Shown here piece after piece: positions 39,455-57,335 of a stretch of 64,000 bases of DNA. The notes beneath the pieces are model-generated. The model had not been told where the DNA came from and ran no database searches. It saw nothing but the letters and a program-made list of their open reading frames with translations. The DNA comes from an uncultured Bacteroides sp. (GTDB lineage Bacteria > Bacteroidota > Bacteroidia > Bacteroidales > UBA11471): the NCBI GenBank assembly GCA_963931635.1, contig OZ007034.1, forward strand, positions 921,285 through 985,284, read 5' to 3'. A program made the position numbers and the translations under genes. Within the stretch, counting starts at the first letter, position 1. Each line of letters starts with the position of its first letter.

Positions 39455-39533
39455 AAAGGATGCGGCTCGGCATAGTCAATGGATGAAAACTTCGTTTTCT
39501 CTTTGCCTCTGCTCTCGCCTTTCACTATCTTTG
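39455..39533 (+). repeat. solo (about 0.9 unit) copy of the 85-bp hairpin repeat family
   Basis: ggatgcggctcggcatagtcaatggatgaaaacttcgttttctctttgcctctgctctcgcctttcactatctttg is near-identical to units at 56900-57335 and, inverted, at 48285-48520. Confidence 0.85.
39526..39533 (+). promoter_or_regulatory. -7 box TATCTTTG (inside the repeat) upstream of the SpoU/TrmH gene
   Basis: TTTG-N20-TATCTTTG is formed by the repeat tail and head, 30 nt before ATG 39563. Confidence 0.55.
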
Positions 39534-46808: not shown

Positions 46809-46833
46809 TGTCGTCGTCGGTGTGACAAACAGG

Positions 46834-46875
46834 AGAGAGGCTCTGCCACGGCGGCAGAGCCTCTCTTTCATTTTA
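46834..46875. terminator. hairpin terminator between convergent genes
   Basis: agagaggctctgcc (46834-47) pairs with ggcagagcctctct (46853-66), followed by ttcatttt. Confidence 0.75.
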
Positions 46876-46880
46876 TTTTA

Positions 46881-47300
46881 TTAGTCGGAAATCTCGATAG
46901 CGGGATTGCGGCGCGATAGTTCCCTTACGAAAGCGTCGAGCTCTTTGGGCGAGACGAAGAGCGGCCGTTTCGCCCCTCTCAGCCTCAGCACGACACCGCG
47001 GCGGGAGAGGGCATAGGCCGCCGCAAACGGGCAGCGCCGCACGGTGACGGACACGCCGGTGATAGCCGTTACCGGCACACGGCAGGTGGCCAGATAGCCC
47101 GAGCGCACGACAAGCGTGCCGTCGTCGAGAAAACGGTATTCGGTGCCGGTGATGCGGGCAATGAGAAATACCGCCCCCAGCATGCACACCACCCATGCCA
47201 CCACATACCCCACCCACAGGCAGTAGAGCATGGCAGCCGTCGCCACCGCCAGCAGCGAATAAAATGCCGTACCGTCGATTCCCGATTTAAATGTGCGCAT
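46881..47300 (-). CDS. bacterial PH-domain (bPH) membrane protein
   Basis: Two N-terminal TM helices are followed by ...TEYRFLDDGTLVVRSGYL...PVTAITGVSV...VVLRL..., as in YdbS/YdbT-type PH domains. High-GC codon usage like the host. Confidence 0.6.
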   Translation of the reverse strand: MRTFKSGIDGTAFYSLLAVATAAMLYCLWVGYVVAWVVCMLGAVFLIARITGTEYRFLDDGTLVVRSGYLATCRVPVTAITGVSVTVRRCPFAAAYALSRRGVVLRLRGAKRPLFVSPKELDAFVRELSRRNPAIEISD

Positions 47301-47366
47301 GGGCAGAATACTTTTGTTAAACTAATTCAATTTCTCAGATAACGCGGTTTCCTTGAAAATGTTGTT

Positions 47367-48278
47367 TTACTCCCGATATAACATACCGGCATTGCGGGTT
47401 ATGTTGGCTACCACGTCGCGCAGCCACGAAGGTGACTCCACCTCTATCTCATCGCCGTAGGAGAGTATTTCCTTGACAAAGTCGAAAGAGGGTCGCAGTT
47501 GGTATTCAAAAATCTTGAAATCCATCTCTTTGTCGGTCTCTATCTCTTTCTGGCTGTGATGCAGGGGCAACGAACGTATATATTTGTATTGGTTGCCATA
47601 AACGATGAGGCGTACCGTCTCTATCTTTTTGTCCGTATCCACGATGATGCCGAAACAGGAAGAGAAAAATTCCTGGGCATCGAAGTCGTCCGGCAAAGAA
47701 AAAGTCTGTTCGGTTATATGGATAGAAGAAATGCGATCCAGCGAAAAAACCAATAAATCGTTTTGCCGGCAGCTGCGTGCCAATACATACCAGCGTTGAC
47801 GGAATATTTTTAGGCAGTATGGTTCTATGTCGAACGTTTTGGTCGATTTTTTCCAGAAACTTTGATACGAAATGGTTACCACTCTATTGCAGCGCATGGC
47901 TTCGATCATGGGAATAAGGTATTTTTCGCCCGAAGGTATGTTCTCCAATAGAATTCTTTTTTTGAGGAGATGATTTTCATTAATGATATTATTTACGGCG
48001 AAAGTATTCAGTAACCATTTTTTTATATCATTTTTTTCGATGTCTTCAACATTTTCGATGTAATAACAGTATCCGTTGCGTCTCTCACATTCGATGTTGA
48101 TATCGAAAATATCTTCGATGGCTTTTCTGTGATTATGGAATGTGCGTATGGGTATGGTCTCTCCCTCGCTCATGCCGGAGAGTAACCATTTTTCATTGAT
48201 TTCTTCGAGCGAAATTTTGCCTGCCCGATAAATGGTATTGATGAGCCAGATGTATCTGGTAAATAGATTTTTTGCCAT
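47367..48278 (-). CDS. WYL domain-containing transcriptional regulator (HTH-WYL-WCX architecture)
   Basis: MAKNLFTRYIWLINTIYRAGKISLEEINEKW (wHTH-like). Central ...IEPYCLKIFRQRWYVLARS...LLVFSLDRI (WYL beta-barrel signature). AT-rich codons. The longer 48485 start reads through repeat DNA and is rejected. Confidence 0.75.
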   Translation of the reverse strand: MAKNLFTRYIWLINTIYRAGKISLEEINEKWLLSGMSEGETIPIRTFHNHRKAIEDIFDINIECERRNGYCYYIENVEDIEKNDIKKWLLNTFAVNNIINENHLLKKRILLENIPSGEKYLIPMIEAMRCNRVVTISYQSFWKKSTKTFDIEPYCLKIFRQRWYVLARSCRQNDLLVFSLDRISSIHITEQTFSLPDDFDAQEFFSSCFGIIVDTDKKIETVRLIVYGNQYKYIRSLPLHHSQKEIETDKEMDFKIFEYQLRPSFDFVKEILSYGDEIEVESPSWLRDVVANITRNAGMLYRE

Positions 48279-48284
48279 AATGTA

Positions 48285-48520
48285 CAAATATAGTGAAAGG
48301 CGAGAGCAGAGGCAAGGGAGAAAACGGAGTTTTCGTCGATGACTATGCCGAGCCGCCTCCTGTATTCTGAAAATATAGCGAAAGGCGAGAGCAGAGACAA
48401 GGGAGAAAACAAAGTTTTCGCCAAAGACTATGCCGAGCCGCCTCCTGTATTCTGAAAATATAGTGAAAGGCGAGAGCAGAGACAAAGAGGAAAAGATAAT
48501 TTTATATCGAGCCGCTTAGG
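48285..48520 (-). repeat. tandem array (about 2.8 units) of the 85-bp hairpin repeat family, inverted orientation
   Basis: Unit heads (tctcgcctttcac on the minus strand) fall at 48305, 48390 and 48475, an exact 85-bp period. A degenerate partial unit extends to ~48520. Confidence 0.85.
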
Positions 48521-48528
48521 TTCTGTAA

Positions 48529-48564
48529 TGAAAAAATAAAACAGGCAAGCGCAAGCTTGCCTGT
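48529..48564 (-). terminator. rho-independent terminator ending the 5-gene island operon
   Basis: acaggcaagc (48541-50) pairs with gcttgcctgt (48555-64). On the minus strand it is followed by tttatttttt. It lies 7 nt after the stop of the 77-aa ORF. Confidence 0.8.
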
Positions 48565-48570
48565 TTTATT

Positions 48571-48804
48571 TTAGCTGCGCTTGGTCCATGACCTACCTTC
48601 GGTTGTCGAATAAAACAGTCCTTTGGTCGTTTGGGCTAAAATTTCTTTTCCATTATCGATCAAATCCAGAAAATCTCCGATATTGGAGTTTGGTTGGAAC
48701 CGAACGGTCCATGATCTTCCGTCCGTGAAAGAATATTCGAGTTTCCCTGCTGAAACCGGGGAGATGCGGATAAGTTCTTTTCCGCGTTTAATCATTTTGG
48801 GCAT
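48571..48804 (-). CDS. 77-aa protein with two Asp-box/BNR-like hairpin motifs
   Basis: Internal duplication KLEYSFTDGRSWTVR / GLFYSTTEGRSWTKR (S-x-T-[DE]-G-R-S-W). AT-rich codons. Last gene of the operon. Confidence 0.5.
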   Translation of the reverse strand: MPKMIKRGKELIRISPVSAGKLEYSFTDGRSWTVRFQPNSNIGDFLDLIDNGKEILAQTTKGLFYSTTEGRSWTKRS

Positions 48805-48874
48805 AAGTATTTGTTTTTAGAGTGGTGCCTCATGTTTACGGTCTTTGGCATTACCGGCATATATCCATATGTTA

Positions 48875-49501
48875 TTATTCTGGGGTTGAGTGGTTATTCC
48901 ATTGGCCTATTTTGTAATTGATAATACTGTTTTTACAATCTATTAGACCTTTTATTACTGCATTGAGATTTTCTATGTCAATTGTTTTGCTAATGTTCGG
49001 AATACTGATTTTTTCCCATTTTTTCTTATCTCTGTCATAGTTATACGTTATAGTTAAGTTGGAGGCAGTGTTATAAAACCGGGTACAGGAGTAGGTACAG
49101 GTGTCGTTTTGTATTTGTGTTTCGATTTTTTCGAGAGTGCTTATCAATTCTGTGATTGCATCGAGTGGATAATATATATCATCTGCCCCTATAAGAAATC
49201 CGCATCGTTCGTTTTTATCCATATTTTCGAAGAATTGTATGGATAACCAAGTTTTTTCAAGATGCTCCTTTTCAATATATGTGTATATATTATAATTATA
49301 TTCAGATGTGGTGTATTTATATAAGGGGATTTCTGTGATGCTTAAGGCGAATGTTTCGATAGATTGTTGTGGTATTATATTCCAAAGTTCATATTCTTCG
49401 TTTGGTACATTACCCGAAAATGTGTTGCCGTTGTTTTCACAACTGCTTGTCAGTAGAGCAAAAAATAGTCCGATACCGATAAGAAGAAAAAGTTTTTTCA
49501 T
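48875..49501 (-). CDS. lipoprotein, unknown function (island)
   Basis: Signal/lipobox MKKLFLLIGIGLFFALLTSSC|ENNGN. No recognisable domain. 8-nt gap to the upstream gene. Confidence 0.65.
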   Translation of the reverse strand: MKKLFLLIGIGLFFALLTSSCENNGNTFSGNVPNEEYELWNIIPQQSIETFALSITEIPLYKYTTSEYNYNIYTYIEKEHLEKTWLSIQFFENMDKNERCGFLIGADDIYYPLDAITELISTLEKIETQIQNDTCTYSCTRFYNTASNLTITYNYDRDKKKWEKISIPNISKTIDIENLNAVIKGLIDCKNSIINYKIGQWNNHSTPE

Positions 49502-49509
49502 AAGTGTTG

Positions 49510-50274
49510 TTATTTTTTGAGATTACATAGAATATCTTCAACGATTGTGTCGAAATAGGCATCCATGGTACCTTTTCCTTTATACATGAATCCGCGTGGG
49601 TGAAAAGTGCGATAGGCCCATTTTATGCCGGGAATTTCAACCCTGGCTATTTCTTGGCCATGGGCCGAGGTCAGGGGCGAGAACGTAACGCCTTGAATGC
49701 GCTTGACAATGACAGGGTCGTACGATGGTCCCGTGAGGAATAATACGACATCGGGTTTCAGTATGCGCAGTTCTTCTTCCACGACAGGGAAATATCGCAT
49801 TTCGACCTCCTGTATCTGTTGCGGAGGAATGCCGATTGCATTTTTCTGCCCGGGAATGCGGGCTTTTCCTATTTTCACGATATTGTTCCATACATACTCG
49901 ATGGTGCGTCCCGGGCATTTTTCGCGAAGGCGGGACATGAATTTCTCCATGCCGTGCATGAATATTTTTCGGCTGCCGTCGCCATAATTGAAGTAGCCGT
50001 TGTAAATTTCTTGTATGCGGTCTATTTCTTCGCGGGGGGCGATGTTCTCAGCCGAAAACGTGCCTCCCCAATCGTTGTTCTCACGGCCGAAAACAACGAC
50101 ACGCAAGTCGGCTTTCTCGTAATCGGCTCCGTTGTCTTTTACAAACAGCAGAAGCGGATTGGTGGGTAGGGAGGAGGCCGCTGTGTTTACTGTCACCGAT
50201 TTCATTGCCTTGCAGAAGTCGGGCCATAACCCGGAGTACAGATCCATGAGTTTGTCATCTACATCTTTTTTCAT
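49510..50274 (-). CDS. cytoplasmic hypothetical protein with UDG-superfamily-like motif order
   Basis: LRVVVFGRENNDWGG (aa 57-71), WNNIVKIGK (129-137), KPDVVLFLTGPS (173-184) and TFHPRGF (223-229). These occur in the same order as the family-4 UDG blocks as I recall them. No Fe-S cysteines. Confidence 0.55.
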   Translation of the reverse strand: MKKDVDDKLMDLYSGLWPDFCKAMKSVTVNTAASSLPTNPLLLFVKDNGADYEKADLRVVVFGRENNDWGGTFSAENIAPREEIDRIQEIYNGYFNYGDGSRKIFMHGMEKFMSRLREKCPGRTIEYVWNNIVKIGKARIPGQKNAIGIPPQQIQEVEMRYFPVVEEELRILKPDVVLFLTGPSYDPVIVKRIQGVTFSPLTSAHGQEIARVEIPGIKWAYRTFHPRGFMYKGKGTMDAYFDTIVEDILCNLKK

Positions 50275-50278
50275 AAGA

Positions 50279-50938
50279 TTATTCTTTTAGCAAGTTGTAT
50301 AGTTGGGTTAAGTAAAAGTAATCGATACCAAAAGAAAGTATAGCAACAAACAAGTTATAGAAAGAGAAACCGTCTTCTAATCCTATGCCAAAGAAAAGTA
50401 TTGGTATTTGTAACAGTATGGCTATACCTAATAGACCGGTAATTTCGGCGTTGTTCTTTATTAGTTTGATACCGAGTATGGTATAAATAACAAGGTCTGA
50501 AATGATTACTGCAAAAGAAAATATCATGGCAGTTTTGTCGAATGAACCTTCTATTTCCATAAAGATTAGAGATAGGAATAGAATATTTAATGAGATAGCT
50601 GCTTCCAATAGTTTGGTCAATGGTTTTTGTAGAGGTTTCATTCCCAGTGTCAGAGCACATAAGAATAATATATTTATTACATAATAAATACAATCGTATG
50701 TTGTTTCGGGAAGAAGATTTATTGTATCGTATAATATTTTATATTTCCCAAAATGAGGTTTATATCCAATTGTAAAAAAAGCTTGGCAAGCCGCTACGAT
50801 TAATCCCGCATAATATAAGAAAGGGATAAACGGGGATAAGGCATTAGGTAACGTCTTAAAGGTTTTCCCGCAATAACGACATTGTGTGCTGGGTTTTGGT
50901 ATGTCTTCATTACAAAAAGGACATTTTTTATATTCCAT
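50279..50938 (-). CDS. zinc-ribbon-headed polytopic membrane protein (island)
   Basis: N-terminal CPFC-x10-CRYC, then about 6 hydrophobic helices. 4-nt gap to the downstream UDG-like gene. Confidence 0.65.
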   Translation of the reverse strand: MEYKKCPFCNEDIPKPSTQCRYCGKTFKTLPNALSPFIPFLYYAGLIVAACQAFFTIGYKPHFGKYKILYDTINLLPETTYDCIYYVINILFLCALTLGMKPLQKPLTKLLEAAISLNILFLSLIFMEIEGSFDKTAMIFSFAVIISDLVIYTILGIKLIKNNAEITGLLGIAILLQIPILFFGIGLEDGFSFYNLFVAILSFGIDYFYLTQLYNLLKE

Positions 50939-50964
50939 GGCATTAGATTTTATGTGAGAATTAA

Positions 50965-51588
50965 TTAATTATTTACTCGTTTGAAAGAAAAGAAGCCGTC
51001 GCTGGCAATAAAAGAGAGTGTATCCCCTTCGATGGTTAAATTTTTGTATGACCCTTCATTTATGTTATCTTGTTCGTACTGTTCGTAAAATTCTTTAAAA
51101 GCATTTTTTTGTAATTCTTTTGTTATTTCCCCTTCGAAGGGAGTTGTAAATATTTCTATCAAAGCATTGCCAAAATCCATGATTTCATCTGTGAGAAACG
51201 GACTCTCGGCCACGCTCATATCTACATCATCTATTGTAACCTTTAAAGTATTTAGGTCGTATAGTAATACCAAGTCTCCAAACAAAACTTCGTACCTCCC
51301 CCCGATGAGGCTATTCACAGTATAGTTTATCAGTATGTTATCTTCTTCGATAGTTTCTTCCATAGAGTAGCTTCTATATTCGCTGAATATTCCTCCATCG
51401 GTTTTATTACTTTCTTTATATTTAAAGCGGTAAAATAATGTTTGTGTGTAAGGGGTTCCATCTTCTGTAACGAAATCTAAATACCCAATCCATTTTCCTT
51501 CGAGGTCCCGAGCCAATTTGTTGTCTTGACAACCGGTTAAAAATACAGCTCCTAAAATAAGTGCAACAGAGATTCCTTTTAGTTTCAT
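50965..51588 (-). CDS. lipoprotein, unknown function (first gene of the island operon)
   Basis: Signal/lipobox MKLKGISVALILGAVFLTGC|QDNK. Beta-rich, lipocalin-like feel. No recognisable domain. Confidence 0.65.
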   Translation of the reverse strand: MKLKGISVALILGAVFLTGCQDNKLARDLEGKWIGYLDFVTEDGTPYTQTLFYRFKYKESNKTDGGIFSEYRSYSMEETIEEDNILINYTVNSLIGGRYEVLFGDLVLLYDLNTLKVTIDDVDMSVAESPFLTDEIMDFGNALIEIFTTPFEGEITKELQKNAFKEFYEQYEQDNINEGSYKNLTIEGDTLSFIASDGFFSFKRVNN

Positions 51589-52066
51589 AATTTCCTTTTT
51601 TGAGTTGATAGTGTTTTTGATTTTATTTGCTGCTGTTATAAAAGAAAAGGGACGCAGCCATCGCTTTTTCTCTTACTCGGTAAGGCTCTGGTAAGCCAGA
51701 AGTTCTAAGACGAAAAAAGCAGTCTGCGCCCCATGGGGGGTACAAACTTGACTTTGACGCTTATTGTAGAACTTCTTAAATTTACCAGATTTAACCGAGT
51801 TCAATAATTGTCAGGCAAGTTGTGCAATATGTTACAAAGATTATAAGATGTCTATTTTTACCTCCTTTTTTAGTTTTCGGAGGTAAAGAAAATAAATTTT
51901 TCTTTAAAACACAAACTCAACGTAAAATATCGCCGACTGCTTTGTACAGGCAAAGGTCTTTGCGTGATGTGCCAAATCGTTGCATAGCTTGAAAAAAGTT
52001 GTGCATAAATAGAGCGGGAGATGGGTAAAATGGGGGTGCACGGGAATATACTTTGATGGAAATTTG

Positions 52067-52074
52067 TATATTTG
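52067..52074 (+). promoter_or_regulatory. -7 box TATATTTG upstream of nadB
   Basis: TAnnTTTG match 43 nt before ATG 52117. Confidence 0.5.
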
Positions 52075-52116
52075 CCGCAAGAACACCGGAACAAATGCCG
52101 GTGAAAGAAAGAGTGT

Positions 52117-53703
52117 ATGGTATATAAATACGATTTTTTGGTGATAGGTTCGGGCATTGCCGGAATGAGTTTCGCCCTGAAAGTGGCCCACAAGGGAAAA
52201 GTGGCTCTCATCTGCAAAGCCGGTCTCGAAGAGGCCAATACCTATTTTGCGCAAGGCGGCATCGCTTCGGTGACCAATCTTGCGGTAGACAACTTCGAGA
52301 AGCATATTGAAGACACGATGATTGCCGGCGACTGGATAAGCGACCGGCAGGCTGTGGAGAAGGTGGTGCGCGAAGCCCCCGGACAGATAAAGCAGCTCAT
52401 CGAGTGGGGCGTGCAGTTCGACAAGAAGGAGAACGGCGAGTTTGACCTTCATCGGGAGGGCGGCCACTCCGAGTTCCGTATCCTGCATCACAAAGACAAC
52501 ACCGGTGCCGAGATACAGACCAGCCTCATCAATGCGGTGAAGCAGCACCCCAACATCACGATATTCAAAAACCATTTCGCCGTCGAAATCATTACCCAGC
52601 ACCACTTGGGCATCATCGTTACGCGATACACCCCCGGCATCAAGTGTTACGGTGCCTATGTGCTCGATGAGGAGACGGGCGAGGTAGATACCTTCCTTTC
52701 CAAGGTTACTGTCATGGCCACAGGGGGTTGCGAGGCGGTATATCGCAACACGACCAATCCGCTGGTGGCTACGGGCGACGGCATTGCCATGGTATACCGT
52801 GCCAAGGGTGCGGTGAAAGACATGGAGTTTATCCAGTTTCACCCCACGGCGCTCTATCACCCCGGCGACCGACCCAGTTTCCTCATTACCGAGGCCATGC
52901 GCGGATACGGTGCCGTGCTGCGCAACCAGGCCGGTGAGGAGTTCATGCAGAAGTACGACCCGCGTCTCTCGCTGGCACCGCGCGACATTGTGGCCCGTGC
53001 CATCGACAAGGAGATGAAGCAGCGCGGCGAAGACCACGTCTTCCTCGATGTTACCCACAAAGACCCCGAAGAGACCAAGCGCCACTTCCCCAACATCTAC
53101 AAGCATTGCCTCTCGATAGGTATCGATATTACCAAAGATTACATACCTGTGGCACCGGCCGCCCACTACTTGTGTGGAGGTATCAAGGTCGACCTCGACG
53201 GACAGTCGAGCATACGCCGGCTCTATGCCCTGGGCGAGTGTTCCTGCACCGGTCTGCACGGAGGTAACCGTCTGGCCTCGAATTCGCTCATTGAGGCCGT
53301 TGTTTATGCCGATGCCGCTGCCCGCCATGCCCTGAGCGTGTTTGAACGGTACGATTTCAACACCGATATTCCCGAGTGGAACGCCGAAGGTACCATCACC
53401 AACGAAGAGCGTATTCTCATTACCCAGAGCATGAAGGAGGTGAATCAGATCATGGAGTCGTATGTGGGCATCGTGCGCAGCAACGTACGCCTCACCCGGG
53501 CCTGGAACCGCCTCGACATTCTCTACGAGGAGACCGAGAGCCTCTTCAAGCGCAGTAAGGCCTCGCGCGAGATATGCGAGTTGCGCAACATGATAAACGT
53601 GGGTTATCTCATCACCCGTCAGGCCATGGAGCGCAAGGAGAGCCGCGGGCTGCACTACACCATCGATTATCCCCACGCCGCAACTACCGGTGAGAAGAAA
53701 TAA
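52117..53703 (+). CDS. nadB: L-aspartate oxidase
   Basis: FAD motif [16 protein letters not shown]. ...YFAQGGIA...; ...HPTAL...; ...RGYGAVL...; ...HYLCGGI...; ...[23 protein letters not shown]-type block (here [12 protein letters not shown]). Confidence 0.93.
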   Translation: [528 protein letters not shown]

Positions 53704-53728
53704 CGGCATTGTTGCCGTATGAGAAAGC

Positions 53729-53770
53729 AAGCGCCTGTTCTCCATCTCGGAGAACAGGCGCTTGTCGTTT
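53729..53770. terminator. hairpin terminator between convergent nadB and the lipoprotein gene
   Basis: aagcgcctgttctcc (53729-43) pairs with ggagaacaggcgctt (53749-63), followed by gtcgttt. Confidence 0.75.
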
Positions 53771-53822
53771 ATCGTCTCTGTTCCGTTGCGTGTGCCGTCT
53801 GTGGTCCGGCAACGGCACGCGG

Positions 53823-54368
53823 TTATTGCTGGTAGGGAACAGCGAGTGTTACCACCTTTCCGTTGTATTTCTCTACCGAAGAGGTGAGGTAGCGGTAGGC
53901 ATCGTCCAGATTGAGACCTTTTATGGAAGAGGTGGTCTTGTTGGAATGGGTATCGTTGTTGGAACTCGTGTAAGAGATATTCACGTTGTTGAGTCCGGTG
54001 ATGTTGAACGTTGTTTTGTCGGTAACAATGGCCTCTTTCTCTTTCAGGGTGGCATTGACCGATATTTGGGCTTCTAAGGGAGCCTTTACATCGTTCAGGG
54101 TTACGCTCCACGGGTAAGAGTCGACCACCACATTCTCGGTCATGGTGCCGTCGGCATTTTTATAGGAGACCGTCAGGTCATAGAACAGGAGGTTGTCAAA
54201 CCCCGTGATGTTGGCGTCGAGCAAACCCAGACTCCCTACCTCGTAGGTTATAGTATAAGTTGTTTCGCCGGTTGTCGAGGTGAGGATATCGGTATTATCA
54301 CTTTTGTTTTCGTCACACGACACAAGTCCCGCCAAAAGGGGAATCATCAGAAGAAAAAGATGTTTCAT
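53823..54368 (-). CDS. small lipoprotein, unknown function
   Basis: Signal/lipobox MKHLFLLMIPLLAGLVSC|DENK. T/N/S-rich beta-sandwich-like sequence. Confidence 0.65.
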   Translation of the reverse strand: MKHLFLLMIPLLAGLVSCDENKSDNTDILTSTTGETTYTITYEVGSLGLLDANITGFDNLLFYDLTVSYKNADGTMTENVVVDSYPWSVTLNDVKAPLEAQISVNATLKEKEAIVTDKTTFNITGLNNVNISYTSSNNDTHSNKTTSSIKGLNLDDAYRYLTSSVEKYNGKVVTLAVPYQQ

Positions 54369-54468
54369 AGCAGTTTGTTTTTAAAAAGAAAATTTCGTGC
54401 AAATTTAAAAATTCCCCGTGAATAAACAGAGAGAAGAGTGGGGAAGAAAAATATGAAAAATTTTGTAT

Positions 54469-54476
54469 TATCTTTG
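54469..54476 (+). promoter_or_regulatory. -7 box TATCTTTG upstream of the GH43 gene
   Basis: TAnnTTTG match 114 nt before ATG 54590. Confidence 0.4.
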
Positions 54477-54589
54477 TCGTAGACCGGTAGTGCCGTGGCA
54501 GGGTCTGCAATCGAAAACCGTGTTTTGTAGCACCCGTCCTGCCCGGTATCTGTTGCCGGTGATTGAAAATAGAAAAAGAGAAAGATTCC

Positions 54590-56899: not shown

Positions 56900-57335
56900 T
56901 CTCGCCTTTCACTGTTTTCATAGAAGACAGGAGTCGGCTCGGCATAGCCAATGGATGAAAACTTCGTTTTCTCTTTGCCTTTGCTCTCGCCTTTCACTGT
57001 CTTTTCAGAAGACAGGAGTCGGCTCGGCATAGTCAATGAACGAAAACTTCGTTTTCTCTTTGCCTCTGCTCTCACCTTTCGCTATCTTTTCAGAAGATAG
57101 GTTGCGGCTCGGCACAGTCAACGATGAAAACTTCGTTTTCTCACCCGCCTCTGCTCTCGCTTTTCACTGTCTTTTCAGAAGATAGGAGTCGGCTCGGCAC
57201 AGTCAACGAGTGAAAACTTCGTTTTCTCACCCGCCTCTGCTCTCGCTTTTCACTGTCTTTTCAGAAGACAGGATGCGGCTCGGTAAAAATCTCAAACGAG
57301 TTTGGTCTTTTTACTCTCGCCTTTCACTATCTTTG
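56900..57335 (+). repeat. tandem array (about 5.2 units) of the 85-bp hairpin repeat family
   Basis: Unit heads tctcgcctttcac fall at 56900, 56985, 57070, 57155, 57241 and 57315. Each unit carries ctgtctt-ttcag-aagacag and gaaaac-ttc-gttttc hairpins and the core cggctcggcatagtc. Confidence 0.9.
57328..57335 (+). promoter_or_regulatory. -7 box TATCTTTG in the last repeat unit, upstream of the MFS gene
   Basis: Only the gene-proximal unit has TATCTTTG. Internal units read TGTCTTTT or TATCTTTT. It lies 52 nt before ATG 57387. Confidence 0.55.

Follow-up and report, generated by a model that had tools for sequence, protein, structure and literature searches.

A low-GC mosaic island lies between a bPH-domain gene and nadB at about 47300..52100 of the window (the whole stretch of 64,000 nucleotides that was analyzed), with a GC content of 0.31-0.50 against 0.55-0.63 in its flanks. 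It harbors a co-directional string of genes on the minus strand, the first of which (50965..51588) encodes a predicted lipoprotein of 207 amino acids (cluster c7). It is followed by a gene for a protein of 219 amino acids (50279..50938, minus strand) that combines a zinc ribbon with a multi-pass membrane region and ends 4 bp upstream of the gene under study; this membrane protein gene is mostly missing from a 96%-identical MAG locus (L013; indel at 50376-50965). The gene under study (49510..50274, minus strand, ATG start in the six-frame ORF list) encodes a divergent, iron-sulfur-free protein of 254 amino acids of the uracil-DNA glycosylase (UDG) superfamily, and its GC content (0.47-0.50) contrasts with that of the neighboring genes (0.31-0.36). 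A second predicted lipoprotein, of 208 amino acids (cluster c13; 48875..49501, minus strand), lies 8 bp downstream and was recognized as an ORF with a signal/Cys motif; it had no match in the family searches. Homologs of the c13 lipoprotein adjoin members of the UDG-like family in two loci (L013 and L028), and homologs of the c7 lipoprotein lie near family members in three (L013, L037 and L039).

The string is ended by a perfect 18-nt inverted repeat with a T-run (48533..48572), a likely terminator, ahead of a gene for an HTH-WYL-WCX regulator of 303 amino acids (47367..48278, minus strand, ATG at 48278; Pfam WYL 3.3e-15, WCX 5.9e-7; PADLOC WYL 2.9e-28). An array of 85-bp repeats (48286-48503) lies between the WYL gene and the string. 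Because both the hairpin with its T-run and the repeat array intervene, the WYL gene is probably a separate transcription unit; of the WYL-linked, horizontally acquired operon that was originally proposed, the WYL gene and the low-GC island are present, while a likely terminator and repeats separate the regulator from the remaining genes. The 85-bp repeats, which lie upstream of the WYL gene, were considered as operators and rejected, since other parts of the window contain arrays of this repeat too. No Rfam match was found in the island, and a sigma-70 promoter scan, with a model that contains no Bacteroidota promoters, gave a count near the shuffled expectation. Searches with Pfam and PADLOC found no NTPase or nuclease partner at the locus, PADLOC found neither PtuA nor PtuB of Septu among the island proteins, and PADLOC, NCBIfam and PHROGs hold no model for the 254-residue protein itself.

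The AF2 model of this protein, built with a 97-sequence alignment as input, reached a pLDDT of 93.9 and a pTM of 0.92, and shows an alpha/beta/alpha architecture with a parallel four-stranded sheet that is superimposable on solved UDGs. Foldseek searches of the PDB with two independent models returned UDG-superfamily proteins as 50 of the 50 best matches in each case, and the viral matches were UDGs or the UDG domains of phage polymerases. The best E-values for the AF2 model were obtained with UdgX (2e-6), the family 4 enzyme of T. maritima (3e-5), the S. tokodaii enzyme (2e-4), TDG (5e-4) and SMUG1 (8e-4). The TM-scores to PDB UDGs are only 0.37-0.54, so the pocket may be substantially different. 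At the sequence level, the protein alone scores below the threshold of the Pfam UDG profile (PF03167; E=0.0048, 17.4 bits versus 24.3), and the superfamily profile is recovered at the level of the family: 47 of the 97 members match it singly at E<0.01 (best 2.9e-7), and members fused to other domains cover profile positions 2-137 of 141. Comparison of the 97-sequence family profile with an alignment of family 4 PDB entries by hhalign gave 93.5% probability (E=2.3e-7). In a plain phmmer search the only PDB matches were UdgX (E=0.006), HMMER profiles of 5 (A1) or 97 (A2) sequences lost or almost lost the UDG match in the PDB, and the isolated UDG-like domain of a fused member, P0034, found no match as a query. 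Because of this sub-threshold score and the failure of plain HMMER profiles to keep the PDB match, the UDG signal requires profile-profile or structural methods. Comparison with the single sequence of E. coli Ung by hhalign yielded only a suggestive local alignment of G-Q-E with G-Q-D.

Taken with the sequence profiles, these models leave very little doubt that the protein adopts the UDG fold. The original prediction had read UDG-superfamily membership from the order of four motif blocks and had named Foldseek and structure modeling as checks; both pointed to the UDG superfamily at meaningful significance, the confidently predicted fold being that of a UDG and of no other class. The same prediction expected such a protein to be unusual. 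The fold was borne out, but its assignment is less unusual than supposed, because some members of the family are already annotated automatically as UDGs in public databases.

The four blocks occur in the claimed order and at the claimed positions (residues 57-71, 129-137, 173-184 and 223-229), and the numbering of E65, N66 and H225 agrees as well. All conservation figures below refer to the 97-sequence family alignment. The motif A block (residues 57-71, LRVVVFGRENNDWGG; 50062..50106, minus strand) consists of strand beta-1 and G63-R-E65-N-N-D-W69, in which G63 (100%), E65 (98%) and W69 (97%) are conserved. Its R-E-N-N residues differ from those of family 4, as had been pointed out; the consensus of the target's own family is G-Q-E-T-N-x-W, of which they are a local variant. 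The catalytic acid is predicted to be E65, which would provide the water-activating D/E/N at the end of strand 1, in an atypical sequence; it aligns with either family 4 E41 (GEGPG; low confidence) or E. coli Ung D64 (GQDPY), with a register uncertain by one residue. A helical insertion of 28 residues (72-99), absent from family 4, separates motif A from F105 (49960..49962, minus strand), the predicted base-stacking Phe; F54 (PFVG) of T. thermophilus UDG lies opposite it in the alignments, and 90% of the family have Phe here. The block at the end of strand beta-2, W129-N130-N131-I-V-K134-I-G-K (residues 129-137; 49864..49890, minus strand; family consensus W-N-N-I-x-K-I-G-K), aligns with (T)N(I/A)VK of family 4 and UdgX, with N131 (92% conserved) opposite family 4 N80 and K134 (100%) opposite K83; N130 is conserved at 97%. 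The third block, KPDVVLFLTGPS (residues 173-184; 49723..49758, minus strand), spans a helix end and strand beta-3 and aligns with (A/E)P(Q/D)(I/V)(I/V)V.LG of family 4; P174, F179 and G182 are conserved in at least 95% of sequences. Motif B, TFHPRGF (residues 223-229; 49588..49608, minus strand), contains H225 (98%) and P226 (97%) and aligns with T. thermophilus UDG, where H155 corresponds to H225, and with the HPS of UdgX.

The correspondences to family 4 that had been drawn originally (NIVK to N-x-V-K, HP to motif B and PDVV..LTG to the third strand) thus hold residue by residue, and the protein possesses both the motif B His (H225) at the end of strand 4 and the strand 2 Asn (N131) of the superfamily. 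The UDG active-site residues (E65, F105, N131 and H225-P226) are present and almost invariant in the family and, given this conservation, the four blocks exceed chance. Four aromatic residues (Y13, W69, Y91 and W129) are also invariant in the family. Of cysteines the protein has three (C21, C120 and C250), and no column of the alignment exceeds 19% Cys; the lack of 4Fe-4S ligands that was predicted for the single protein therefore holds family-wide, which implies that there is no iron-sulfur cluster.

Family 4 UDGs (UDGa; T. thermophilus 1UI0, T. maritima 1L9G/1VK2, S. tokodaii 4ZBX/4ZBY) share the fold with the protein and, together with UdgX, are the best sequence-profile match of its family. 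They have in common with it the stacking Phe (PF-x-G), the N-x-V-K end of strand 2, P-D-(I/V)-(I/V) in strand 3 and the H-P of motif B. However, the cysteines of the family 4 cluster (C13, C16, C84 and C100) have no counterpart, and in place of the N-terminal Cys-x2-Cys segment the target family has a long helix together with N-P-L-L-L, which is invariant. Motif A reads G-Q/R-E-T/N-N-x-W in place of G-E-(A/G)-P-G, VKIGK stands for the VKCRP of N-x-V-K-C-R-P, and the overlap across the two motifs is limited to G, E, N, V and K. Moreover, family 4 enzymes are housekeeping proteins, whereas the target is island-borne and WYL-linked. UdgX of M. smegmatis (6AIL, 6IO9 and the 8II* series), the top Foldseek match, carries its R-loop just where extra residues are inserted in the target, behind the N-x-V-K strand. 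The K-R-R-I-H loop with the nucleophile His109 lies opposite a variable loop of the target (residues 139-148), which is deleted in some family members; because this loop contains neither K-R-R-I-H nor a conserved His, the covalent crosslink of UdgX His109 to the abasic site is not expected here. UdgX also has an Fe-S cluster, which the target lacks. The protein is a member of a large, uncharacterized, iron-sulfur-free clade of the UDG superfamily that is nearest structurally to family 4 and UdgX.

Only four relatives came up when the protein alone was used in a word-indexed homolog search, so that an exhaustive profile search was needed to expose the family. This search identified 1498 representatives at E<=1e-3, of which 853 remained at <=1e-10 and 159 at <=1e-30, corresponding to about 1500 clusters at 50% identity, mostly from Bacteroidota. 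Most members are annotated as hypothetical, with a few named automatically as UDG or carrying a precomputed PF03167 assignment, and no phage-encoded copies were found. One member is fused to a UvrB/UvrC UVR motif, and some are fused to or adjoin an FtsK-gamma DNA-binding domain.

The genomic context was surveyed in at least 46 loci, of which 43 came from a genome scan run with the 5-sequence A1 profile, which biases them to Bacteroidales. An HTH-WYL-WCX regulator adjoins the family gene in about 40% of the loci; the pairing occurs in two phyla and takes several architectures, and in 17 of the 43 scanned loci a WYL-WCX gene lies no more than two genes from the family member. Some of these pairs overlap or are separated by 3 bp, and WYL genes also accompany the family gene in Hymenobacter actinosclerus and on an Arcobacter plasmid. 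Both the adjacency to WYL and its conservation across loci are those of a WYL-regulated defense module. KAP NTPases (PifA/QatA-like, E=1.8e-29) lie directly upstream of the family gene in five to six loci, and an IetA-like AAA ATPase lies 13 bp upstream of it in a Dnd/ArdC region. In two distant relatives of the target, P0034 and P0037, the UDG-like domain is fused to the Septu ATPase PtuA (E=7e-43); PtuB (E=4e-25) comes 3 bp after the P0037 fusion, and the P0034 fusion adjoins SIR2_2 and nSTAND1. Septu PtuA/PtuB genes were recognized only in these relatives. Other neighbors include DpdF, PDC-S01/S11/S48, SIR2-Piwi, and transposases or AbiEi, and many loci have housekeeping neighbors only. Raw locus counts overstate independence, since the loci are phylogenetically clustered and many are from Muribaculaceae. 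A seemingly recurrent 'long WYL' partner (LRR/Sel1 proteins of about 630 amino acids that clustered with WYL) proved to be an artefact of one chimeric ORF call. Literature searches found no paper that mentions both uracil DNA glycosylase and the WYL domain, and nothing pertinent on UDG-like proteins in defense islands or on combinations of RtcB, WYL, KAP and glycosylase.

The WYL-WCX regulator of the window has the architecture of CapW/BrxR. CapW-type WYL repressors sense ssDNA (PMC11662680), and the NTPase-plus-effector systems under HTH-WYL-WCX control, including Septu, resemble the loci in which relatives of the target either form a fusion with PtuA ahead of PtuB or directly follow KAP- or IetA-like NTPases; the window's own locus differs from Septu in having neither NTPase nor nuclease. 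A UDG-like domain is not known as a component of Septu, and the PADLOC 2023 models contain none.

UDG-superfamily glycosylases have been established as antiphage effectors with Brig1, Brig2 and Brig3 (PMC11078745; bioRxiv 10.1101/2025.10.29.685425; bioRxiv 10.64898/2026.02.25.707755). Brig1 and its close structural homolog Brig3 are, like the target, stand-alone UDG-superfamily proteins of about 250 amino acids without Fe-S that are located in acquired or defense regions, and they excise bases from phage DNA to leave replication-blocking abasic sites, the mode proposed here for the target (PMC11078745; bioRxiv 10.64898/2026.02.25.707755). Nevertheless, hhalign of the 97-sequence profile against the single Brig1 sequence gave 0.3% probability, with no homology detected beyond the shared fold, and the motifs of Brig1 (L-G-L-N-P-G and N-F-E-L-Y-P-W-H-S) and the key residues of Brig3 (N50, E55, W100, D127 and N225, compared from its description) differ from those of the target family. 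Membership of the target in the Brig1/Brig3 clade was rejected on the hhalign result. The Brig substrates are known, and the accessible portions of the Brig1 and Brig3 papers report no WYL regulator, in contrast to the WYL linkage of the target family. Brig2, which defends against phages with modified thymidine, and the integron UDG-like proteins (Getz et al., bioRxiv 10.1101/2025.10.29.685425) share with the target a UDG-like fold, are likewise found in acquired, AT-rich regions and are spread widely over phyla, Bacteroidota among them. Brig2 homologs are reported mainly from Pseudomonadota (735) and Bacillota (274), with only 32 in Bacteroidota, in contrast to the mostly Bacteroidota named members of the target family.

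The recurrence of the family beside WYL regulators and defense-type ATPases suggests that the target is probably an inducible base-excising enzyme that acts against foreign or damaged DNA. Catalysis itself, judged from the retained active-site residues, is rather likely. The protein would flip a base out of DNA, hydrolyze the N-glycosidic bond and leave an abasic site, with E65 activating water, F105 stacking on the flipped base, N131 reading the base edge and H225 stabilizing the leaving group; Y13, W69, Y91 and W129 may shape the pocket for something besides plain uracil. As the context suggests, the neighboring HTH-WYL-WCX repressor of the CapW/BrxR type would keep the gene off until phage infection or DNA damage led to its expression, and abasic sites in invading, possibly base-modified DNA would then block replication. 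In other genomes the same domain would act coupled to, or fused with, defense ATPases. We put the chances of a role in defense or conflict at about even, and likewise those of the complete reading, a UDG-superfamily conflict-system effector under WYL control. The evidence for action on modified phage DNA or for a nucleobase-effector role, both of which had been suggested originally, is genomic context only. Points against a conflict role are the makeup of the window's own locus, where the nearest genes code for lipoproteins and a membrane protein, no NTPase partner was found and the WYL gene lies beyond the likely terminator, the lack of phage-encoded copies, and the many loci with housekeeping neighbors only.

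A serious rival, if on balance a somewhat unlikely one, is that the target is a damage-inducible repair glycosylase that removes the cell's own damaged or toxin-modified bases within mobile damage-tolerance or nucleic-acid-repair cassettes, its WYL partner being a damage-response regulator like PafBC, DriD, SiwR or DdaA. WYL regulators do control damage responses besides defense (PMC12392091; PMC10693628). On a Hymenobacter monticola plasmid the family gene runs in the same direction as umuD and a gene for a Y-family polymerase, and on a Caballeronia plasmid it lies 1.7 kb from ImuB/DnaE2-type polymerases, although these umuDC and imuB plasmids carry defense genes too. The UVR-motif fusion points in the same direction, as do the Muribaculaceae and Porphyromonadaceae loci, where the gene is part of a co-directional cluster with an RtcB RNA ligase and a DEDDh exonuclease, and a close relative (57% identity) that adjoins a HAD_SAK_2 RNA-repair-type domain. 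What argues against repair is that the family is patchy, island-borne and very highly diverse in sequence, that its domain is fused to a Septu PtuA with a PtuB partner, and that KAP, IetA, SIR2, pAgo, Dnd and Dpd neighbors are hallmarks of conflict systems and not of core repair. The PtuA fusions also bear on an improbable alternative, in which the UDG fold is a non-catalytic module: it would flip or bind a base or lesion and so serve for sensing or targeting, for instance by recruiting or licensing partner NTPases and nucleases. There the domain forms the N-terminus of the ATPase with the nuclease PtuB still present, so that an extra effector is not obviously needed; the P0034 fusion has Gly at the position of E65, FtsK-gamma is a DNA-binding neighbor or fusion partner, and motif A of the family lacks the Pro and Gly of all characterized families. 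However, the conservation of E65, N131 and H225 in 92-98% of stand-alone members is hard to explain by mere binding, and stand-alone members such as that of the window have no enzymatic partner at their locus.

An ordinary housekeeping uracil/hypoxanthine-DNA glycosylase of the family 4 type, minus the Fe-S cluster, is very improbable. The nearest structures are indeed those of family 4 UDG and UdgX, the base-reading Asn, stacking Phe and motif B His of uracil-specific enzymes are kept, and some members bear the automatic name uracil-DNA glycosylase; but motif A is rewritten, 28 residues are inserted before the stacking Phe, the TM-scores are low, the gene belongs to a low-GC island and its surroundings vary by indels, and linkage to WYL and NTPase genes would be unexpected for a housekeeping BER enzyme. 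The sub-threshold Pfam score, the PDB matches lost by the A1 and A2 profiles and TM-scores below 0.55 might even suggest that the motif likeness is coincidental and that the protein is unrelated to UDGs, for instance a generic flavodoxin-like alpha/beta protein. This is effectively refuted by the exclusive UDG matches of two models, the hhalign probability, the independent PF03167 matches of nearly half of the aligned members and the position of the conserved residues on known catalytic sites.

The family is large, occurs chiefly in Bacteroidota (among them gut Muribaculaceae and relatives of Bacteroides) and is almost entirely annotated as hypothetical. Tentatively, and with more doubt than for the defense role as such, it may be a previously undescribed and widespread branch of the UDG superfamily whose roughly 1500 clusters represent an inducible, WYL-gated glycosylase defense and also a portable base-flipping module, one that is plugged into Septu as fusions with PtuA and also into NTPase systems of the KAP and IetA types, perhaps attacking a base that is not exclusive to phages. 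The last point is suggested by the tight pairing of the family with a damage- or ssDNA-sensing repressor, which the accessible Brig papers do not report for Brig1 or Brig3. If the base is not exclusive to phages, the enzyme would be a self-harming, abortive-type glycosylase or would have a new modified-base specificity relevant to phages of gut Bacteroidales. Antiphage DNA glycosylases are reportedly a recent addition, with Brig1 in 2024 and Brig2, Brig3 and the Dag enzymes in 2025-26, and every new clade of them has so far, to our knowledge, brought a new modified-base specificity. An enzyme active on a specific modified base might serve as a reagent to map that base. Should the protein instead be a repair enzyme, it would define for Bacteroidota an Fe-S-free, family 4-like group of UDGs that is controlled by WYL-type damage regulators. 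The pairing with WYL-WCX raises the idea that damage-sensing repressors may gate glycosylase effectors transcriptionally, and the PtuA fusions the idea that NTPase-based defense systems may use a UDG-fold domain as the head that reads or cuts DNA.

The gene at 49510..50274 on the minus strand, taken from the six-frame ORF list of the window, encodes a 254-aa protein with four sequence blocks (residues 57-71, 129-137, 173-184 and 223-229), and its translation agrees with the original prediction on the ORF, the blocks and the numbering of E65, N66 and H225. Taken alone, this target gives only marginal sequence matches to uracil-DNA glycosylases (UDGs): the Pfam UDG family was matched at E=0.0048 (17.4 bits; gathering score 24.3) over the C-terminal half only, phmmer against PDB found UdgX and family-4 chains at E=0.006, a word-indexed database search returned four relatives only, and the UDG match was lost when a 5-sequence profile was compared with PDB. 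An exhaustive profile search recovered 1498 representatives of 50%-identity clusters at E<=1e-3 (853 at E<=1e-10 and 159 at E<=1e-30). Among 97 aligned family representatives, 47 matched PF03167 at E<0.01 (best 2.9e-7), no other Pfam family recurred, and in fused members the PF03167 match spans profile positions 2-137 of 141. The AlphaFold2 model of the target built from this alignment (mean pLDDT 93.9, pTM 0.92) had only UDG-superfamily structures among its best 50 Foldseek matches in PDB, including UdgX (from 2e-6), family-4 enzymes of T. maritima and S. tokodaii, TDG and SMUG1; an earlier model from a shallow alignment gave an agreeing picture, and UDGs and UDG domains of phage polymerases were matched in a viral structure library. 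By hhalign, the profile of the 97-sequence alignment matched four aligned family-4/UdgX PDB sequences, taken from search alignments and including a probe sequence identical to 1UI0, at 93.5% probability (E=2.3e-7, 128 columns). Pfam matches of individual members, modelled structure and profile-profile comparison converge to show a UDG fold, which upholds the superfamily relation first proposed: a profile match was found, and the confidently modelled fold is of the UDG class rather than another. The Foldseek TM-scores are modest (0.37-0.54), so the target is a divergent member of the fold and no close relative of any solved structure. The fold had been called unusual if confirmed; it is confirmed, but its novelty is mild, because automatic annotation already catches some members. 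Some carry a precomputed PF03167 match; NCBI calls one member 'uracil-DNA glycosylase family protein' and UniRef lists one as 'Uracil DNA glycosylase superfamily protein'. The majority are 'hypothetical protein'. None of the phage genomes searched encodes a family member.

Three agreeing alignments place the active-site residues on those of T. thermophilus UDG. F105 (I-F-M-H-G) corresponds to F54 of P-F-V-G, the base-stacking Phe; N131 and K134 (W-N-N-I-V-K) to N80 and K83 of T-N-I-V-K, in which the Asn reads the base; K-P-D-V-V-L-F-L-T-G to A-P-Q-I-I-V-P-L-G; and H225-P226 to H155-P156 of motif B. For strand 1, a permissive alignment of A-D-L-R-V-V-V-F-G-R-E-N-N-D-W with D-A-K-L-M-I-V-G-E-G-P-G-E-E-E puts E65 on E41 with low local confidence, and an hhalign comparison with E. 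coli Ung (6.5% probability) sets F-G-Q-E-T-N on L-G-Q-D-P-Y and E65 on the catalytic D64; in either register E65 would occupy the motif-A catalytic position or lie one residue off. In the 97-sequence alignment, G63, K134, Y13, P40 and E168 are 100% conserved, E65 and H225 98%, W69, N130 and P226 97%, Y91 95%, N131 92%, W129 91% and F105 90%. The active-site residue set is thus essentially complete and highly conserved. In the model, E65, N131 and H225 each stand where a strand finishes on its C-terminal side (57-65, 125-133 and 219-223, respectively), which is the position of the active site in UDGs.

The family nevertheless differs from the characterised UDG families. As originally noted, the 4Fe-4S cysteines are absent: no column of the 97-sequence alignment exceeds 19% Cys, so the family has no Fe-S cluster. 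Motif A is divergent, as had also been recognised, lacking both the Pro and the second Gly of the characterised families. Whereas family 4 has an N-terminal Cys-x2-Cys segment, the target has a long helix and an invariant N-P-L-L-L segment; a 28-residue, largely helical insertion (72-99) not found in family 4 separates motif A from the stacking Phe, and the family-4 'VKCRP' is replaced by 'VKIGK'. Family 4 membership is ruled out by the missing Fe-S cysteines and canonical motif A, and UdgX membership by the missing K-R-R-I-H loop in the phmmer alignment. The antiphage glycosylase Brig1 (sequence from the PMC11078745 supplement) showed no detectable relation to the family profile by hhalign (0.3%), which rules out the clade of Brig1 and its close structural homolog Brig3. 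Brig2 homologs are reported mainly from Pseudomonadota and Bacillota, with 32 from Bacteroidota (bioRxiv 10.1101/2025.10.29.685425), a profile that differs from the Bacteroidota-rich named matches of the family, although this compares reported taxonomy with a biased family sampling.

The target lies in a low-GC stretch (~47.3-52.1 kb; GC 0.31-0.50, against 0.55-0.63 outside). In minus-strand order this holds a predicted lipoprotein of neighbour cluster c7 (50965-51588), a 219-aa zinc-ribbon multi-pass membrane protein (50279-50938), the target, a lipoprotein of cluster c13 (48875-49501) and a 77-aa protein (48571-48804), followed by a likely terminator (48533-48572; an 18-nt perfect hairpin and its T-run), an 85-bp repeat in ~2.6 copies (48286-48503) and an HTH-WYL-WCX gene (47367-48278, minus; Pfam WYL 3.3e-15, WCX 5.9e-7; PADLOC WYL 2.9e-28). 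The gaps flanking the target are 4 and 8 bp, which points to co-transcription with its neighbours; the target's neighbours in the window have no meaningful match in Pfam, NCBIfam, PADLOC or PHROGs. The WYL gene shares the low-GC island, as the proposed WYL-linked operon implied, but is probably a separate transcription unit. The GC content of the target (0.47-0.50) exceeds that of the flanking island genes (0.31-0.36 at 48800-49500 and 50300-52000), so the island is a mosaic, and the target may have an origin different from that of its lipoprotein neighbours.

A scan of one genome per species yielded 46 loci, mainly from Bacteroidales and especially Muribaculaceae, a sample biased by scan patterns derived from Bacteroidales sequences. 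After ORF calling, clustering and annotation of neighbours, the dominant partner was an HTH-WYL-WCX protein of ~300 aa, with WYL found in 17 of 142 neighbours within two genes at 43 loci. It lies immediately downstream of the target homolog, overlapping or 3 bp off (e.g. loci L027 and L030), upstream (L043 and L047), divergent and two genes off (L014 and another examined locus), or two genes downstream as in the window. In Hymenobacter actinosclerus (L062 6982-9629), a tight three-gene operon encodes an FtsK-gamma protein, the target homolog and WYL-WCX, and on an Arcobacter plasmid the homolog is followed, after one gene, by a regulator homologous to the window WYL protein (E=3e-6). Retention of the association through rearrangement and across two phyla indicates a functional link. 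No paper in the literature searched mentions both uracil DNA glycosylase and the WYL domain, and glycosylases go unmentioned in the paper on BrxR co-localisation.

Other upstream partners are KAP P-loop NTPases (5-6 loci; PADLOC PifA/QatA-like, E=1.8e-29), cytoplasmic LRR/Sel1-repeat proteins of ~630 aa (7-8 loci), lipoprotein c9 and, in a Dnd/ArdC region, an IetA-like AAA ATPase 13 bp upstream of a family member. In two proteins the UDG-like domain is fused N-terminally to the Septu ATPase PtuA (E=7e-43): P0037, with PtuB 3 bp after it (E=4e-25; both genes within L067 130-3626), and P0034, which lies beside SIR2_2 and nSTAND1 genes (together at L066 391-8178) and in which Gly replaces E65. 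No PADLOC model covers the UDG-like domain, and to our knowledge it is not a described Septu component. Other fusions carry FtsK-gamma or a UVR motif. FtsK-gamma, a KOPS-binding winged-helix domain, is linked twice, as the separate 270-aa upstream protein of H. actinosclerus and as a C-terminal fusion (P0138), which suggests sequence- or orientation-specific dsDNA recognition coupled to the putative glycosylase. Further neighbours include DpdF, the candidate defence genes PDC-S01/S11/S48, DEDDh exonucleases, a metallophosphoesterase matching PDC-S10, SIR2-Piwi, and transposases or AbiEi. RtcB heads a co-directional cluster in four or five Muribaculaceae/Porphyromonadaceae loci; at L024 8181-12187 and at ~7140-12260 of L033 and L034, the RtcB RNA ligase is followed by 2-3 small uncharacterised genes, the target homolog, WYL-WCX and a PDC-S48-like DEDDh exonuclease, so that enzymes of RNA repair stand with DNA-acting ones under a putative WYL regulator. 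Besides these RtcB clusters, some other contexts do not indicate defence either: on one plasmid the gene lies by umuD and a Y-family polymerase, on another by ImuB and DnaE2-type polymerases, a 57%-identical relative adjoins a HAD_SAK_2 domain, and many loci have housekeeping neighbours only.

On sequence and model, the target would be a monofunctional DNA glycosylase with the base flipped into a pocket at the C-terminal sheet edge, with predicted roles for E65 in activating water, for F105 in stacking on the base, for N131 in reading its edge and for H225 in stabilising the departing base. The further invariant aromatics Y13, W69, Y91 and W129 plausibly alter the shape of the pocket, together with the N-terminal helix and the 28-residue insertion, so that the enzyme need not be specific for uracil. 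From context, we infer that the target acts as an effector of a conflict system under the control of the WYL-WCX repressor. CapW-type repressors sense damage through ssDNA binding (PMC11662680), and many defence systems have WYL regulators located with them (PMC9122601). The UDG-superfamily glycosylases Brig1, Brig2 and Brig3, which make abasic sites and thereby stop phage replication, act on alpha-glucosyl-hmC (PMC11078745), modified thymidines (bioRxiv 10.1101/2025.10.29.685425) and hmC (bioRxiv 10.64898/2026.02.25.707755), respectively; they offer a direct precedent for such an effector. The main alternative is a repair enzyme induced by damage, with the WYL protein serving as a damage-response regulator. 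Less likely is a module that senses bases without catalysis, an idea prompted by the PtuA fusions and by the E-to-G change in P0034. As far as can be told, the new elements are the definition of a large clade that has no Fe-S cluster and an altered motif A (compared with Brig2 by reported taxonomy only), its conserved WYL-WCX pairing, and the way in which Septu, KAP and IetA-type systems have recruited it. The field is moving fast and the family is well suited to experiments, though it does not amount to a categorical surprise.

Several smaller features were observed around the target. The 77-aa ORF contains two Asp-box/BNR-like repeats (F-T-D-G-R-S-W-T and T-T-E-G-R-S-W-T) and weakly matches the NCBIfam F510_1955 glycosylhydrolase family (E=5e-4, far under cutoff). 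A matching locus with 93-97% DNA identity in an uncultured Bacteroidales bacterium MAG (CALUZW010000004.1) lacks 50376-50965, the greater part of the membrane-protein ORF immediately before the target, and also 53682-54578, ~900 bp with a 181-aa lipoprotein ORF (53823-54368); both are recent indel differences in small surface/membrane genes. The 85-bp array just upstream of the WYL start codon is on the plus strand; four copies lie at 56979-57260 (-) and a single copy at 39507-39532 (-), and a 26-nt core has 8 matches in the window against 0 expected. Rfam gave no match on the island, and none of the fetched loci contains the unit at 0 mismatches. The unit resembles a dispersed intergenic repeat specific to this genome and may be the reason that the related MAG contig stops ~2 kb past the target. 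Just past a bPH-domain gene (46881-47300), and ~0.5 kb outside the island edge, a strong 16-bp GC-rich hairpin with T-runs on both strands (46832-46868) is likely a bidirectional terminator.
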